10,379 nt of DNA from Methanothermococcus sp. SCGC AD-155-E23 (GTDB taxonomy: Archaea; AGJL01; Methanococci; Methanococcales; Methanococcaceae), in NCBI GenBank assembly GCA_019561615.1, contig JAHEQA010000022.1, positions 1 through 10,379 on the forward strand, written 5' to 3'. Below, piece after piece: positions 3,065 to 9,518 of this stretch. The notes below the pieces were generated by a model. The model did not search any database and had not been told where the DNA came from. It was given only the letters and a program-made list of their open reading frames with translations. Made by a program: the position numbers and the translations under genes. The stretch's first letter is position 1; each line of letters starts with the position of its first letter.

Positions 3065-3453
3065 TAGGCTCCTCTAAATTTCTTTGCAAACTTTAACTTT
3101 TCAAACTCCTTTACATACTTACTCTGTTTTGTCTTCTTGGTGGTATACTTCTTCCAACCCTCCCTAGGTCTAAAGAGAGTTATTACATTCCCCACCAGGC
3201 TTACAACCTCTGCATCTGCCTCTAAGGCCAGTCTCTTTGCTATGTTTTCCCTGGTATCCTTCTCCAGTGCAGTCCTCCTGATCTTTACCTTTATAAGTCC
3301 CTTATCCTTTATCTGTCTCTTTACCTCGTGAATAACCTTGTCAACCCCCTCCTTTCCCACCCAGACTACTGGGGAGAGGGAATGGGATTTAGTCCTAAGT
3401 ATCTTTTTAGCCTTTGATGTTAACCTCTTAGGTGGCTGTAAATCTTCCTCCAT
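3064..3453 (-). CDS. yhbY: YhbY/CRM-domain RNA-binding protein with a basic C-terminal extension
   Basis: LRTKSHSLSPVVWVGKEGV, GLIKVKI, VSLVGNVITLFR match the CRM domain pattern; located upstream of rps19e; Lys-rich tail. Confidence 0.9.
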   Translation of the reverse strand: MEEDLQPPKRLTSKAKKILRTKSHSLSPVVWVGKEGVDKVIHEVKRQIKDKGLIKVKIRRTALEKDTRENIAKRLALEADAEVVSLVGNVITLFRPREGWKKYTTKKTKQSKYVKEFEKLKFAKKFRGA

Positions 3454-3466
3454 GGATATCCCTTAT

Positions 3467-3517
3467 AAAGTTATATATCAAAATTCTTATAGTATTGTTA
3501 CCCTTTAAATATATAAA
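3467..3517. promoter_or_regulatory. Divergent promoter region for yhbY (-) and mmp3 (+)
   Basis: 83-bp AT-rich spacer containing AAAG-TTATATAT (+, TATA 3471-3478), TTTAAATA (+, 3504-3511) and TTTATATA (-, 3510-3517). Confidence 0.55.
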
Positions 3518-3536
3518 ATTATCAGGGGAGGAAGCC

Positions 3537-5039
3537 ATGGTAAGGGTCTTTGTTAACAGCAGGGAGAAGGAGGGAAAGACCCTCAGAGATGTAATTGAAG
3601 GAGAGCCCTACATAGAGGGGGGTAATATAGTGATAGTAAAGGGGGTGAAGAAGGAGGTGAAGAGGTCCAGGAGGTACAAGATCACCACCACCAAGGGGAC
3701 AATGATAGTAGCTATAACTGAGGACTCCAAGGTTGTAGACTTCTGGAATAGGAACTATAAGAGATTTGTTGAGAAGGAGGTTAGGTGGAGAGGTATAGCT
3801 GACGTTGCCTTTGGACCCATAAGAATAGATCTGGAGATGAGTAACAAACCCCAGAAGGTTAAGAAGTGGGATGTTATTCTCAGTATATCTGGATTTGACA
3901 GAAATGAGGGGCATCTTGTATTTATCAAGAGGGATACTACCGAGATCTACGGTATTGAGAATCCAAAGATAGGGGTACTTATCGGTGGTAAGAAGGTACT
4001 CTCCAGGTTAACCCCTGAGGATAGGATACTCTCCATAGAACCTCTAAGGGAGTCAAGGGAGATAGTGGACTATCTAACAACTAGAGATCTTGATATGGAA
4101 CTTGAGGAGGGTTGGAGTATATGGACCTACTGTGAGGGGGAGTTGGAGGGACCTCCCCAGGCTGTTGAACATGTTCTTGCACTTGTAGAGGGAGGATATT
4201 TGGAGATAGGACAACATACAAACACCTTCATCGCAGACTGTAGGTTAAAGAGTCTCGAGGTAGAGGGGGAAAATACCGAGGAGAGATTTAGGGGTGCCAT
4301 TACAGTGAGGAATACCGGGGATGGTGTTGGTAAGGTGTATATATACAGGGAGGGAAGGACATCTACACCCTCACATACCCTAGTAGGTAAGATAACAAAA
4401 GGTATGGAGTTGGTGGATTTCTCAGATGAAGGTATTATAACTGTTAACCTTAAACCTGAGAGGTTGAATGTCCTTGGAATGACCCAGGCTGAGGCCTCTG
4501 AGGTGTTAAGTAGGTACGGTATAGAACATAGGAGGGAGGGGGATAAGGAGGACGATGCCATAGTGGTTGAGCAGATACCTGAGTACACCTTGGAGGTGTT
4601 AAGGTCTAAGGAGGTTATAACTAGGGGGTTGTCTCCAGATAAGATACTCTTCATAGAGATATTTGATGACAAGGCTCCAAGGACTGCCTGGTACTTTAGA
4701 AAGACAACTGGATTAACTATAAGGAGAATAGGGAAGTTGAAGGTGTACTTCAAGGTAGGGGATATGGTGATCTTTGAGAGAAATGAGAGGTACGCCCGTG
4801 GGCTGCTCCCCGAGAATACCCCATCAGATAGGGTGGAGGGGGGCTACATAGGGGTAACAAACATGGTGAGAAAGTTAAAGGGGTATATTGGAGTGAGGTT
4901 CAGCCCCAATGAGAAGTACGGTCCTACAGGGGAGACCTTCGAGGCCACCAATATAGTAGGTAGGGTTGTTAAGAACCTTGAGATACTTAAGAGGGCTAAG
5001 GTAGGGGATGAGGTCTACCTCTTTGAGGTAAGATCTTAA
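3537..5039 (+). CDS. mmp3: Methanogenesis marker protein 3 (cyclophilin-like domains), 500 aa
   Basis: Start reassigned to ATG 3537 (GGGGAGG SD; the track start at 3432 overlaps yhbY). Family motifs ITTTKG, RGAITVRNTGDGVGKVYIYRE..SHTLVG, APRTAWYFRKTTGL, LLPENTP, IGVTN, IGVR...KYGPTGE.FEATNIVG. Confidence 0.92.
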   Translation: MVRVFVNSREKEGKTLRDVIEGEPYIEGGNIVIVKGVKKEVKRSRRYKITTTKGTMIVAITEDSKVVDFWNRNYKRFVEKEVRWRGIADVAFGPIRIDLEMSNKPQKVKKWDVILSISGFDRNEGHLVFIKRDTTEIYGIENPKIGVLIGGKKVLSRLTPEDRILSIEPLRESREIVDYLTTRDLDMELEEGWSIWTYCEGELEGPPQAVEHVLALVEGGYLEIGQHTNTFIADCRLKSLEVEGENTEERFRGAITVRNTGDGVGKVYIYREGRTSTPSHTLVGKITKGMELVDFSDEGIITVNLKPERLNVLGMTQAEASEVLSRYGIEHRREGDKEDDAIVVEQIPEYTLEVLRSKEVITRGLSPDKILFIEIFDDKAPRTAWYFRKTTGLTIRRIGKLKVYFKVGDMVIFERNERYARGLLPENTPSDRVEGGYIGVTNMVRKLKGYIGVRFSPNEKYGPTGETFEATNIVGRVVKNLEILKRAKVGDEVYLFEVRS

Positions 5040-5051
5040 AAGGTGGAAGTT

Positions 5052-6236
5052 ATGAAGTGGAAGGAGGGATGTCCCTACAACCCCAGGTTAAATGTAGATG
5101 TAGATGAGTTGTATATCTACGACACCACCTTGAGGGATGGGGAACAGACACCAGGTGTATGTTTCACCAAGGAGGAGAAGTTAGAGATTGCAAGGAAATT
5201 AGATGAGTTAGGGATTAAACAGATAGAGGCTGGATTCCCTGCAGTCTCTGAGAGGGAGATGGAGAGTGTAAAGGCCATAGCAAATGCTGGCCTCAAGGCC
5301 GATATCTTGGCACTCTCAAGGGCTCTAAAGGAGGATATAGACAAGGCCCTCTACTGTGACGTGGAGGGTGTTATAATCTTTATAGCCACATCTCCTCTAC
5401 ATCTAAAGTATAAACTTCGTAAGACCCTGGAGGAAGTGGAAGAGATGGGAATGGATGCCATCGAGTACGCCAAGGATCACGGTCTCTTTGTGGCCTTCTC
5501 TGCAGAGGATGCTACGAGAACCCCTCTAGAGGATCTTATAAGGGTCCATAAAAATGCAGAGGAGCATGGTGCAGACAGGGTTCATATTGCAGATACTACA
5601 GGGGTAGGTACCCCCCAGTCTATATACTACATATGTTCAGAGTTGAGGAAACACTTAAAGAGGGCTCATATTGGGGTACACTGTCATAACGACTTTGGCT
5701 TTGCAGTGATAAACTCCCTCTACGGAGTTATGGGAGGGGCTAGAGCCATCTCCACTACTGTAAACGGTATTGGAGAGAGGGCTGGAAATGCAGCCCTGGA
5801 AGAGGTGGTCATGGCCCTCATGGTACTCTACGGTGTAGATCTAGGATTGAATATCTCTTTATTGAAGGAACTCTCAGAACTTGTTGAAAGGTACTCCAAG
5901 ATACCTGTACCAGTTAATAAACCTATAGTGGGAGATAGGGTATTCTGTCATGAGAGTGGTATCCATGTAGATGGGGTACTGGCAAATCCCTTTACCTATG
6001 AGCCTTTCCTCCCTGAGAAAATAGGTCATAGAAGGGAGATAGTCTTTGGAAAGCATTCTGGAGGCAAGGGAGTACGTGCCAAGTTGAGGGAGATGGGTAT
6101 AGAGGTATCAGATGATGTCCTTCTGGAGATTGTCAAAAGAATCAAAGAGACCAGGGAGGAAGGTATTGAGATAGATGATAAGGTGTTCAGGGATATTGTT
6201 GAGGAAGTATTAAAGGGCAGAAGGTGTTCTAAATGA
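5052..6236 (+). CDS. aksA: Homocitrate synthase AksA (coenzyme B 2-oxoacid elongation), DRE-TIM metallolyase
   Basis: CPYNP N-terminus, DTTLRDGEQTPGV, HCHNDFG, GIGERAGNA, HESGIH, GKHSG; ~394 aa and lacks the LeuA/CimA regulatory domain; closely resembles Methanococcales AksA as recalled. ATG 5052 preferred over GTG 5043 because AGGTGG SD precedes it. Confidence 0.9.
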   Translation: MKWKEGCPYNPRLNVDVDELYIYDTTLRDGEQTPGVCFTKEEKLEIARKLDELGIKQIEAGFPAVSEREMESVKAIANAGLKADILALSRALKEDIDKALYCDVEGVIIFIATSPLHLKYKLRKTLEEVEEMGMDAIEYAKDHGLFVAFSAEDATRTPLEDLIRVHKNAEEHGADRVHIADTTGVGTPQSIYYICSELRKHLKRAHIGVHCHNDFGFAVINSLYGVMGGARAISTTVNGIGERAGNAALEEVVMALMVLYGVDLGLNISLLKELSELVERYSKIPVPVNKPIVGDRVFCHESGIHVDGVLANPFTYEPFLPEKIGHRREIVFGKHSGGKGVRAKLREMGIEVSDDVLLEIVKRIKETREEGIEIDDKVFRDIVEEVLKGRRCSK

Positions 6237-6775
6237 GAAGGTTTTTAATTTTTTTTATTATATTTGGGGTGATGGTAAGCTTATCCCTGTGTATAAAACA
6301 CCCTGAAGATACCAATGAAGTAGATCTGGTGATAAAGGGACAGCCTGTTACACTTGTTTTAAGAACAACTGTAAGGGAGGCTCTTTCTACGAAGTTGATA
6401 AACACCAACGACAGTGACATTTTAAGAAGTTATCTAAATCATAAGATCATCTACCTGGAGTACAACAGGTCCCTACCTCTAGAGGAGGGAAAAATAACTG
6501 TAATAGATCTCTCTATGAAGTTAGGCTTTTTAAAACCTCTCTATGGCCATCTCATTGTGGATGATAGTGTATTTAAAAATGAGAGTGAGAGGGAAATGGT
6601 TAAGAGTAGTAACATCACCTTGATAATAAGGGTGGTTAGGGGTAACAGAAGTGCAACAATAGAAAAAGTGGATGATAGAACCTATCTAATAGAGGGGAAT
6701 TCCCTTAAAGAGTTGGACAAGGCAGAGTCTAGATTTGTCCTGGCTATATACAGGGGTATTGCAGAAAATACTTAA
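6233..6775 (+). CDS. Hypothetical secreted/lipoprotein-like protein, 180 aa
   Basis: ATGA overlap with aksA stop; MRR + hydrophobic stretch + SLSLC (Cys20) resembling an archaeal lipoprotein signal; five N-X-S/T sequons. Confidence 0.75.
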   Translation: MRRFLIFFIIFGVMVSLSLCIKHPEDTNEVDLVIKGQPVTLVLRTTVREALSTKLINTNDSDILRSYLNHKIIYLEYNRSLPLEEGKITVIDLSMKLGFLKPLYGHLIVDDSVFKNESEREMVKSSNITLIIRVVRGNRSATIEKVDDRTYLIEGNSLKELDKAESRFVLAIYRGIAENT

Positions 6776-6776
6776 T

Positions 6777-6846
6777 TTTTTAGGATTCAGATCGGGTAAG
6801 TATCATCACCCTTCAGATAACCCTCTTTTCATCATCATCCTAAAAA
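6777..6846 (-). ncRNA. Box C/D 2'-O-methylation guide sRNA with two guides matching 23S rRNA
   Basis: Minus strand: TTTTTAGGAT-G-ATGATGA (C, 6829-6835)-AAAGAGGGTTAT-CTGA (D', 6813-6816)-AGG-GTGATGA (C', 6803-6809)-TACTTACCCGAT-CTGA (D, 6787-6790)-ATCCTAAAAA. All four boxes are consensus, both guides are 12 nt, and a perfect 10-bp terminal inverted repeat closes it. Exact mature ends uncertain. Confidence 0.95.
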
Positions 6847-6855
6847 GGGGAAAAA

Positions 6856-7143
6856 ATGGAAGATCCCAGGAAGAGACTTAAGAATATAAGAAAGGAGATA
6901 GATGAGATAGACGAGAAACTTGTGTACCTTATAGCCAAGAGGATAGAGTATGGGAAGGAGATAGCCCATTTAAAGAGGGTGTTAGGTTATCCTATAGAGG
7001 ATGGGAAGAGGGAGAGGGAAATTAAAGAGAAGATATTTAAACTGTGTGAAAAATATAACTTGGACTTCCAGGTTGTTTGGAGTGTGATAAAAACACTTAT
7101 AGAGTACAGCAAAAGGATTCAGAGAGAGGAGTTAAAAAAATAA
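6856..7143 (+). CDS. aroQ: Chorismate mutase, AroQ class (monofunctional)
   Basis: LKNIRKEIDEIDEKLVYLIAKR, IAHLK, PIEDGKRE and YSKRIQ match the type II chorismate mutase pattern; 95 aa; AGGGG SD-like element. Confidence 0.92.
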   Translation: MEDPRKRLKNIRKEIDEIDEKLVYLIAKRIEYGKEIAHLKRVLGYPIEDGKREREIKEKIFKLCEKYNLDFQVVWSVIKTLIEYSKRIQREELKK

Positions 7144-7155
7144 AAAAGTTTAAAA
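7133..7155 (-). terminator. Oligo-T terminator of the S-layer gene
   Basis: Minus strand immediately after the S-layer stop reads TTTTAAACTTTTTTATTTTTTTA; tandem T-tracts are typical archaeal termination signals. Confidence 0.6.
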
Positions 7156-7160
7156 GGGGT

Positions 7161-9518
7161 TTAGTAGTTCTGGATGAGGTAGAGTGCAGCCTCTCTTGTC
7201 TTGTATCTGTCTCCCCCTGCTACTACCAGTATTCTGCCGTCTACTACCTGTAGTGTTGCTGGACTGTCGTTGTTGATGTTTATCTTACCCTGCTTCTGTA
7301 GTTCTTCACTGAGTTTGTTTGCAACTGGACCTCCTACAAGTATCAGGTACTTGTCAGTGTCTAGGGATGCCTCAGTGTCCAGTTTTGCTATTGGTGTCTT
7401 TACTGGCACTACCTCCTGGGCAGTAGCCTTGATATCTTTTAATTTTAAGGTAGTACCTAATACATTTACCTTCTCCCCTACATTTAGAACTACGTCCTTG
7501 TCTATTTCCATCTTGTACCTTGCAAATATCCTATTTGGATCACCATCGTCGGTGAACTCTAGTATGGCGTATTCATTTGGAAACGGTACCTCTCCTTTGT
7601 TGTTTATACTTCTACCACTACCCTCGTATCTCAATGCGAAACCGTAGATTCTTTTAGTTGGATCGTTTTCTACATGTAAGAATTCTGTTTTACTCCGACC
7701 TGCTTCCATATCTGAGTAATTCTCCACGAGTGCTTCATCTGTACAAGTAAGAACCCCATTCTCTAAAGTTATTGCATACAACTTCCAGTCCTTCATGAAC
7801 TCCTTACCTAACTCACACTCTTTTAGATCCTTTGCTACAATCACTGATGCATATCCAGCGTATTCTGGTACGTCTTTGTATGCCTCGTAGACCCTTATAC
7901 CTATGTTACCATATGTTAGTTCAAATGGAACCTTTTCACTCTTAGATCTTACTACTTTACCATCTTTTATAATTTCTACCTCGGCGATTACGTCTTCTTT
8001 ACCTCCACTGATTTGCTGCAATATCTTTACAACTCTTATCTCGTAACCGTTACCTAAATCCTGGCTTTTTCCTTCTCTTACAATACCTGCATATAGTTCC
8101 TTACCTATGTATATCTCATTATCGTTTACATCTATTATTCTGTAGGGTTCTCCTAGGAGTGGTATCTCCATACCTATGTATACTGGCAACAATCTACTTA
8201 AATTGTTCTCTTTATTTCTAAATATTAAAGTACCGTATACTAGATCTCCACTCCTGATTTCAAATTCATCATCATCTTCCTTGTTCACTGATGCCAGAAG
8301 GAATTCTATTGCATCTGCCTTCTTATCACTACTTACGTCATTTGGATCTGCATCGTCATCCTTTACCAGGGTGCTTAGTCTTGAGAGTCTCTGTACCTCT
8401 ATATCGGTGGTGTCGTTGTATCTAATTGTACCGTTAAACATAGCATCGGCATTTTCTAAGTTCATAACGGTAATGTTTCCATCAGATATATGCATAATCT
8501 CCATATTACCAAGAGTGTCCACTCCACTTATATTTATTGGAGTGGTTAAGTTATATATTCTGTTAATTTCTCCTCCATCAACTTGTATGTCTATATCGGT
8601 TATATTTCCAGCCAATACGCCATTTACTAGTCTAACAAGGGATCCATTAATTTCTCCTCCAGTTATTTCAAATCTTCTATATTCACTTCCATTTAACATT
8701 ACATTGACATATCCATCTGTTATGGTTCCATCTATATTAGTATTATTCCAACTTCCTATAATATTTGCCACTACTGTTGTCCCGTTAATATCCCCTACAT
8801 TGTTATCTAAACTGGCGTTAATAGTCAAGTTTATTTTCCCCCTAATTCTTCCATCATTTATAATTCCTTTAATATATCCACTTACGTTAATAGTATCTTG
8901 GTCAACATCTGTTCCGTTAATATTTCCAGAAATATTTAGACTTCCTCTTACTATTGCTCCACTCAAAATCCCCTCTCTTACTTCTGCTGCAGTGACAGCT
9001 CCCCTTACTAAATCCCCACTTGTTATCCTCATGTCTACATTCTCTAATATACCGTTAATTATACTCTGCTCCTCTATCTGGATACTTGCACTTGCATTGT
9101 GCTCTACAAGACCGTTTAGAACACTTCCCCTTCCTAAGTTGTCTGTATAGATTCTTTCAGGTGTTGTGAATATGAAGAACTGGCTACCATCGTTGTATCT
9201 ATTTAAATCGTCAGATAACTCAGTATCTGCACTTGTCTCAATGTTTAACTCCACTTTTCCATCTTCAATTACAACATCCTTGTAGCACATTGATCCTATC
9301 TTTGCGGCGATGTCTGCTGCTGATACTACGTCCATTGCAGCTGCCTTGGAACCTACTACTATGTCTACATTTGGCTTTCCATCCACAACTACGTTCTTCA
9401 TAAATTCTTTTACATCCCCTATTACTACAGTCTCTGCAGCTACCCCACTTGCCAAGGTACTTGCTACCATTGCACCTCCTACTGCAATAGCAGTTATCTT
9501 CTTCAAACTCATAGCCAT
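7161..9518 (-). CDS. sla: S-layer protein, Methanococcales type, 785 aa with a large internal extra segment
   Basis: Characteristic signal peptide MAMSLKKITAIAVGGAMVASTLASGVAA, N-terminal VVG..AAAMDVVSAADIAAKIGS and C-terminal LILVGGPVANKL / VVAGGDRYKTREAA motifs; AGGTGA SD at 9525-9530. Confidence 0.95.
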   Translation of the reverse strand: MAMSLKKITAIAVGGAMVASTLASGVAAETVVIGDVKEFMKNVVVDGKPNVDIVVGSKAAAMDVVSAADIAAKIGSMCYKDVVIEDGKVELNIETSADTELSDDLNRYNDGSQFFIFTTPERIYTDNLGRGSVLNGLVEHNASASIQIEEQSIINGILENVDMRITSGDLVRGAVTAAEVREGILSGAIVRGSLNISGNINGTDVDQDTINVSGYIKGIINDGRIRGKINLTINASLDNNVGDINGTTVVANIIGSWNNTNIDGTITDGYVNVMLNGSEYRRFEITGGEINGSLVRLVNGVLAGNITDIDIQVDGGEINRIYNLTTPINISGVDTLGNMEIMHISDGNITVMNLENADAMFNGTIRYNDTTDIEVQRLSRLSTLVKDDDADPNDVSSDKKADAIEFLLASVNKEDDDEFEIRSGDLVYGTLIFRNKENNLSRLLPVYIGMEIPLLGEPYRIIDVNDNEIYIGKELYAGIVREGKSQDLGNGYEIRVVKILQQISGGKEDVIAEVEIIKDGKVVRSKSEKVPFELTYGNIGIRVYEAYKDVPEYAGYASVIVAKDLKECELGKEFMKDWKLYAITLENGVLTCTDEALVENYSDMEAGRSKTEFLHVENDPTKRIYGFALRYEGSGRSINNKGEVPFPNEYAILEFTDDGDPNRIFARYKMEIDKDVVLNVGEKVNVLGTTLKLKDIKATAQEVVPVKTPIAKLDTEASLDTDKYLILVGGPVANKLSEELQKQGKININNDSPATLQVVDGRILVVAGGDRYKTREAALYLIQNY
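8563..8661. repeat. 15-bp direct repeat inside the S-layer extra segment
   Basis: TTAATTTCTCCTCCA at 8563-8577 and 8647-8661, 84 bp (28 codons) apart, encoding GGEIN twice. Confidence 0.7.

Follow-up and report, generated by a model that had tools for sequence, protein, structure and literature searches.

The window analysed here, a stretch of 10,379 nt, corresponds to contig C22 of a 1.04-Mb genome assembly in 51 contigs, 86% complete and with 43% G+C. Its minus strand carries, in an 80-bp gap between two plus-strand genes, a locus with the features of a dual-guide box C/D sRNA, namely terminal C and D boxes, internal D′ and C′ boxes, guides of ~12 nt and a closing stem (Table 1). All four boxes are perfect, each guide is exactly 12 nt long and the two strands of the stem form 10 Watson–Crick pairs. 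In archaeal box C/D sRNAs, guides of ~12 nt typically separate C from D′ and C′ from D. Re-reading of the minus strand confirmed the strand, the boxes, the 12-nt guides and the 10-bp stem described in the initial annotation of this DNA.

Table 1. Features of the sRNA locus, its surroundings in the window and the other C/D-type loci of the genome (window positions unless a contig is named)
Feature	Position	Strand	Remarks
535-aa ORF	3432–5039	+	No Pfam match
180-aa ORF	6233–6775	+	No Pfam match; flanks the sRNA gap
Box C/D sRNA gene, whole	6777–6846	−	70 nt; predicted extent, delimited by the 10-bp terminal stem
Terminal stem, 5′ strand	6837–6846	−	TTTTTAGGAT; its inner GGAT provides stem I of the C/D k-turn
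Single bulged G before C box	6836	−	Sequence reading
C box	6829–6835	−	ATGATGA; invariant in 30/30 aligned homologues
D′ guide	6817–6828	−	AAAGAGGGTTAT; N5 = G6821, predicted to pair with the helix 69 cytidine (E. coli C1920)
D′ box	6813–6816	−	CTGA; sequence reading and alignment
D′–C′ spacer (k-loop)	6810–6812	−	AGG; sequence and length vary among homologues
C′ box	6803–6809	−	GTGATGA; sequence reading and alignment
D guide	6791–6802	−	TACTTACCCGAT; N5 = C6795, predicted to pair with the helix 71 guanosine (E. coli G1949)
D box	6787–6790	−	CTGA; sequence reading and alignment
Terminal stem, 3′ strand	6777–6786	−	ATCCTAAAAA; sequence reading, fold and pair analysis
Chorismate mutase gene	6856–7143	+	Flanks the sRNA gap; the antisense of its start is the DNA upstream of the sRNA
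S-layer gene, Methanococcales type	7161–9518	−	Beyond the chorismate mutase gene
Further C/D locus	C4 14100	+	
Further C/D locus	C12 4935	−	
Further C/D locus	C27 26793	−	
Further C/D locus	C32 30667	−	Same as C41 3740
Further C/D locus	C41 3740	−	Same as C32 30667
Further C/D locus	C36 23559	+	
Further C/D locus	C46 17807	−	

The architecture was searched for with the pattern ATGATGA-N12-CTGA-N(2–10)-TGATGA-N12-CTGA. The window contains a single match, and none of 200 dinucleotide-preserving shuffles of it contains one. A looser C/D pattern is found at eight places (seven distinct sequences) in the 1.04-Mb genome and nowhere in the reversed genome. The minimum free energy fold of the locus includes the terminal stem, with a z-score of merely −1.50; C/D sRNAs usually have weak folding energy. 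That modest z-score, together with the presence of a 10-bp A/T-rich stem in an 80-bp gap and of a T5 run after the stop codon of the upstream ORF, could be taken to mean that no RNA gene exists here, and that the motifs are either a chance cluster or part of an intergenic terminator hairpin serving the flanking plus-strand genes. This reading is hardly credible given the shuffling result, and it is further contradicted by the invariance of boxes and guides across genera in which the flanking genes are unrelated (see below) and by the occurrence of a Methanococcus maripaludis orthologue among the RNA-seq-derived sRNAs of Dennis et al. 2015 (PMC4644070).

A homologue of the sRNA was detected by blastn in 37 of 40 relatives, with one strong match per genome; the three without a match comprise two genomes of 64% and 54% completeness and a member of another family. 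Together with the shuffles, this distribution bears out the original claim that a real box C/D sRNA is encoded at this place. The alignment A1 was built from 30 of the 38 matching loci. In it, the four boxes and the D′ guide core AAGAGGGTT are invariant and the guide columns are free of gaps, while 29 of the 30 sequences, across four genera, have the D guide core ACTTACCCGA without change; in the row of genome G022, the D-guide half alone is shifted. Variation is found in the base beside the D′ and D boxes, in the D′–C′ spacer and in the flanks. The inner four pairs of the stem covary, being paired in 26–30 of the 30 sequences with at least two pair types each: CG 17/UA 13, GC 17/AU 12 and GC 29/GU 1 for three of them, and GC 12/UA 11/UG 2/AU 1/other 4 for the fourth. 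These changes track a few clades and thus represent few independent events. The outer six pairs, formed in only 12–20 of the 30 sequences, are not maintained throughout the order, and this level of pairing cannot be told apart from that of the A+T-rich flanks.

The genes beside the sRNA recur in 10/10 loci of the same genus versus 0/19 loci of other genera. The flanking genes being common to the genus only, the sRNA has therefore been kept independently of its context. Within the genus, the 180-aa ORF is retained beside the sRNA with 55–83% identity (tblastn). Hydrothermal-vent metagenome contigs provide a view of variation at close range: among the rows listed, differences within the sRNA occur only at 6812, a substitution in the D′–C′ spacer, and at 6842, a 1-nt deletion in the T run of the outer stem, and the boxes and guides are unchanged.

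Both guides find their complements in 23S rRNA. In all 12 LSU loci examined from relatives (L002–L013, from the same genus and the same order), the sense strand contains ATAACCCTCTTA and GTCGGGTAAGTT, and the two guide complements lie 29 nt apart. Counted from the D′ box, the D′ guide makes 11 contiguous Watson–Crick pairs with these 23S rRNAs; for the D guide the number is 10, with a G·U at N1 (beside the D box) and a mismatch at N12. When guides were shuffled and compared with the same LSU, the run length through the fifth nucleotide was reached by 13 of 20,000 shuffled D′ guides and by 101 of 20,000 shuffled D guides. Complementarity to rRNA of at least 9 nt with a Watson–Crick pair at the fifth nucleotide, as defines the class, is thus found on 12/12 relatives' 23S rRNAs. 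The fifth-nucleotide rule leads to C1920 for the D′ guide and G1949 for the D guide, as deduced from a same-genus LSU aligned to E. coli K-12 rrlH (2904 nt). K-12 was chosen as the numbering reference because the copy of another E. coli strain (2902 nt) gave 1918 and 1947. The complementarity to helices 69 and 71, the numbering of the two sites and the distance between them, all given in the initial annotation, hold on these genes.

The organism's own 23S rRNA gene is incomplete in the assembly. The LSU match at C32:229–2027 aligns with only ~nt 1–1755 of a same-genus LSU (96.9% identity), and the 3′ part of the gene (1.2 kb, including helices 69–71) is on none of the 51 contigs; guide pairing is consequently given on relatives' 23S rRNA only. 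Past ~nt 1755, the sequence runs into a 140-nt unit, present in two copies up to the contig end, that repeats in inverted orientation a sequence lying upstream of the 16S gene. The coordinates of this oddity, a cut 23S gene with a repeated unit, are C32:1–2027 and 4177–4314. The break in the 23S gene looks like an assembly fold-back rather than an intron.

Elsewhere in the organism's genome, the D′ guide has four other perfect 12-nt complements plus many runs of at least 9 nt; for the D guide, no second match reaches 10 nt. The specificity of the D′ guide rests on rRNA context and conservation and not on uniqueness. The additional D′ complements, including the many runs of 9–11 nt, might point to other RNAs (mRNA or tRNA) as the targets of the guides in place of 23S rRNA, but they follow from the common word composition of the genome. 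Moreover, the D guide is without any such second match, and both guides match one and the same rRNA, 29 nt apart, in all 12 relatives, which makes a non-ribosomal role for the guides very improbable.

Comparison with catalogued sRNAs places the locus in a known family. Judged by its sequence, it is orthologous to both Methanocaldococcus jannaschii sR3 and Methanococcus maripaludis sR104, so that the guess of a catalogued homologue in the Methanococcales proved right. Both guide cores are in the same positions in sR3, as is the D′ guide in sR104, the gene is in single copy and its distribution follows the order, as expected for a group of orthologues. The gene sequences of the predicted M. jannaschii sR1–sR8 are given in Table 1 of Bleichert and Baserga 2010 (PMC3001065), which names as its sources the Lowe lab snoRNAdb and Omer et al. 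2000 (Science 288:517), and the sR3 sequence in that table is identical to the homologue detected in the M. jannaschii-type locus L031. According to the same paper, M. jannaschii sR2–sR4 assemble inefficiently with the core proteins in vitro. sR3 resembles the present locus in its architecture, its 12-nt spacing and its occurrence as one copy per genome, and shares with it the D′ core AAGAGGGTTA and the D core ACTTACCCGA, which implies the same two predicted targets. The differences concern the terminal stem (GGAT/ATCC extended to 10 bp in the present locus versus TGGC/GCCA in sR3), the D′–C′ spacer (AGG versus ACT), the base beside D′ (T versus G), the base beside D (T versus A) and the genomic neighbourhood, which is unlike that of sR3.

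Additional file 1 of PMC4644070 lists the second catalogued relative, sR104 of M. maripaludis C5, which derives from RNA-seq. Its C box, D′ guide and GGAT/ATC(T/C) stem are those of the present locus. Its D′ target is predicted there to be 23S C2186 in the numbering of the alignment. The same source equates alignment A2178 with E. coli A1912; C2186 lies 8 nt after A2178 and therefore corresponds to C1920. In contrast, the D guide of sR104 is unrelated to that of the present locus and has no predicted target in PMC4644070. As for the two 10-nt guide cores, their main-text literature matches, among those listed, are unrelated primers or oligonucleotides. Altogether, the locus is an unannotated orthologue of a family known since 2000, and the original interpretation is a correct reading of an ordinary, catalogued RNA.

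In Rfam, to which the initial annotation had looked for a check, no family matches the locus at its gathering score. When thresholds were relaxed (E up to 10), 38 matches were listed; C/D families account for 35, of which 34 match, weakly, on the strand and at the place of the sRNA. The best match is RF01133 (‘sR3’), with 39.1 bits (E 8e-9) against a gathering score of 41; RF00095 (snoPyro_CD) scores 34.6 bits against a gathering score of 45, and RF01273 (sR34) is absent from the list. The gathering scores of Rfam thus miss this sRNA by 2 bits. The M. jannaschii orthologue (L031) is above the gathering score of RF01133, with 52.2 bits. However, the consensus guides of RF01133 differ from both guides of the present locus, and its score there is owed mostly to boxes, spacing and a portion of the spacer. 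The two scores, 52.2 bits for L031 and 39.1 for the window, illustrate how box-and-spacer similarity drives such short models.

The two guides differ in their distribution. A search of the 40 genomes of the group with a pattern joining C′ box, helix 71 guide and D box gave exactly one match in each of 31 genomes and none to the reversed pattern. In the Methanococcus-type genus (g4; L043, L198–L203), the helix 71 guide occurs in 0/7 genomes, whereas the 12-mer of the D′ (helix 69) guide is kept in 7/7. The D guide of this genus differs between species, with at least five forms of 11–14 nt, and in L200 the D′ box position is occupied by CTAA and the C′ box is degenerate. Among the seven species considered in PMC4644070, no guide is assigned to G2215, the position extrapolated for G1949 (C2186 + 29), and guides are assigned twice to G2216. 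These observations allow the tentative suggestion, possible rather than probable at this stage, that the helix 71 guide specifies a Gm at G1949 particular to the Methanococcales, and that this guide is lost or drifting in the Methanococcus-type genus with the helix 69 guide remaining fixed. If true, the sR3 lineage would constitute a natural gain/loss pair for studying the role of the second methylation in ribosome assembly; alternatively, it could inform on a double-guide clamp across helices 69–71, at the subunit interface. Loss of the helix 71 guide from the Methanococcus-type genus is the one modestly useful lead.

The same data raise the question of whether the D guide methylates at all. 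It could be that the D′ guide alone does so, the D guide acting as an anchor or folding chaperone on helix 71 or being on its way to loss. Such a division of labour would be in line with the 0/7 versus 7/7 distribution in the Methanococcus-type genus, with the listing of sR104 in PMC4644070, where its D guide is without a target and where G2216, and not G2215, receives guides in the seven species, and with the smaller number of Watson–Crick pairs formed by the D guide and its G·U at N1. It is nevertheless unlikely, since the D guide core is invariant in 29 of 30 sequences from four genera, its N5 forms a Watson–Crick C–G pair, its run of ten contiguous pairs goes beyond the nine pairs required in PMC4644070 and the 12-nt spacing places N5 correctly.

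The interpretation retained, and considered very probable, is that of a functional dual-guide box C/D sRNA, orthologous to M. jannaschii sR3 in a Methanothermococcus-type genome, which would direct the predicted methylations of the C1920 and G1949 equivalents. By analogy with its class, we infer that the locus is transcribed, assembled into an RNP and active at both sites. In the folded transcript, the C and D boxes would make up a k-turn, with the GGAT/ATCC stem closing it, and the C′ and D′ boxes a k-loop. Both motifs would be bound by L7Ae, and a Nop5 dimer with two copies of fibrillarin would then assemble on the L7Ae-bound motifs. Each 12-nt guide would pair with nascent 23S rRNA, and fibrillarin, using S-adenosylmethionine, would methylate the 2′-OH of the rRNA nucleotide paired with guide nucleotide five, counted upstream from D′ or D. 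This predicts a Cm in helix 69 (E. coli C1920) and a Gm in helix 71 (G1949), 29 nt apart. It has also been proposed, in PMC4644070, that simultaneous pairing of two guides may aid local folding.

Two of the three core proteins are encoded in the assembly, the genes for fibrillarin (323.7 bits) and Nop5 (238.2 bits) being adjacent on C32. L7Ae was not found in this 86%-complete assembly. The sole PF01248 match is a 101-aa ORF that reaches 32.6 bits versus a cut-off of 134.6 for TIGR03677 (eL8/L7Ae); it is probably L30e, because the adjoining ORF reads, by eye, as NusA-like. L7Ae is present in 5/5 relatives checked. In three genomes of the same genus (G011:C98, G009:C39 and G004:C2), its gene shares a contig with the sR3 orthologue, at a distance of 11–13 kb, and so far away it would here fall beyond the end of the 10.4-kb contig.

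The helix 69 cytidine is among the most widely guided archaeal sites. In PMC4644070, Sac sR20, Mka sR47 and Iho sR201 are predicted guides for the same C2186, which brings to four of seven the species in which, by prediction, this position is guided (sR104 included). The hosts of these three sRNAs belong to other orders, and their partner guides are other than that of the present locus. In Thermococcales, sR34 (RF01273) also contains this helix 69 guide word, (C/A)AAGAGGGTTAG, with CTGA or CCGA directly after it; six Thermococcus-type loci carrying the word score 70.7–80 bits to RF01273. There, however, the helix 69 guide is in the D position, unlike the D′ position observed here, and the partner guide differs. 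Among the matches listed, the helix 69 guide is also found in a C/D-like context in Nanoarchaeum equitans, Hadarchaeales, Hydrothermarchaeota, Micrarchaeaceae and Thermoplasmata. The contig scan from which these come returned at least 119 stretches, ~90 of them in bacterial or other records without C/D boxes; many of these box-less stretches, among the matches listed, look like coding sequence by eye.

In bacteria, it is TlyA that produces Cm1920 of 23S rRNA, the identical modification at the identical site, as had been noted for this locus at the outset and in agreement with PMC7317525. TlyA is a stand-alone, protein-only 2′-O-methyltransferase that recognizes the ribosomal subunit without a guide RNA, and is unrelated to the box C/D sRNA in both mechanism and ancestry. 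Cm1920 hence represents two routes, bacterial TlyA and archaeal guide RNA, to one ribosomal modification.

Regarding transcription signals, no conserved TATA-like element was seen upstream of the sRNA within its own subclade. A TTATATT word located at 6889–6883, within antisense coding sequence of the chorismate mutase gene, was considered as a promoter and rejected, being absent from the nearest relative, whose sRNA matches at 69 of 70 bases. In other genera, TATATA-like words can be seen by eye 30–50 nt upstream, in very A+T-rich DNA. In one metatranscriptome run (X14), the Logan contigs over region 6400–7300 cover 7175–7300 (part of the S-layer gene end) and ~6555–6616, and none covers 6777–6846; this is uninformative on the sRNA, because a 60-nt RNA is not expected among the contigs of a standard RNA library. 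On the plus strand, six T residues (6776–6781) directly follow the stop codon of the 6233–6775 ORF, and the stem covers five of them (6777–6781). The outer stem of the sRNA may thus double as an oligo-T terminator for this ORF.

The locus itself matters little beyond annotation, and with it the metagenome-assembled genome contains seven distinct loci of C/D architecture, the usual small guide set of Methanococcales. The other six (Table 1), each with a complete set of C, D, C′ and D′ boxes, have no counterpart in the reversed genome, and the identity of the copies on C32 and C41 suggests a duplicated contig end. Several of their guides have cores of 8–13 nt in common with M. jannaschii sR1, sR2 and sR8 as given in PMC3001065 and with M. 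maripaludis sR101–sR107 as given in PMC4644070, a few of the guides being identical.
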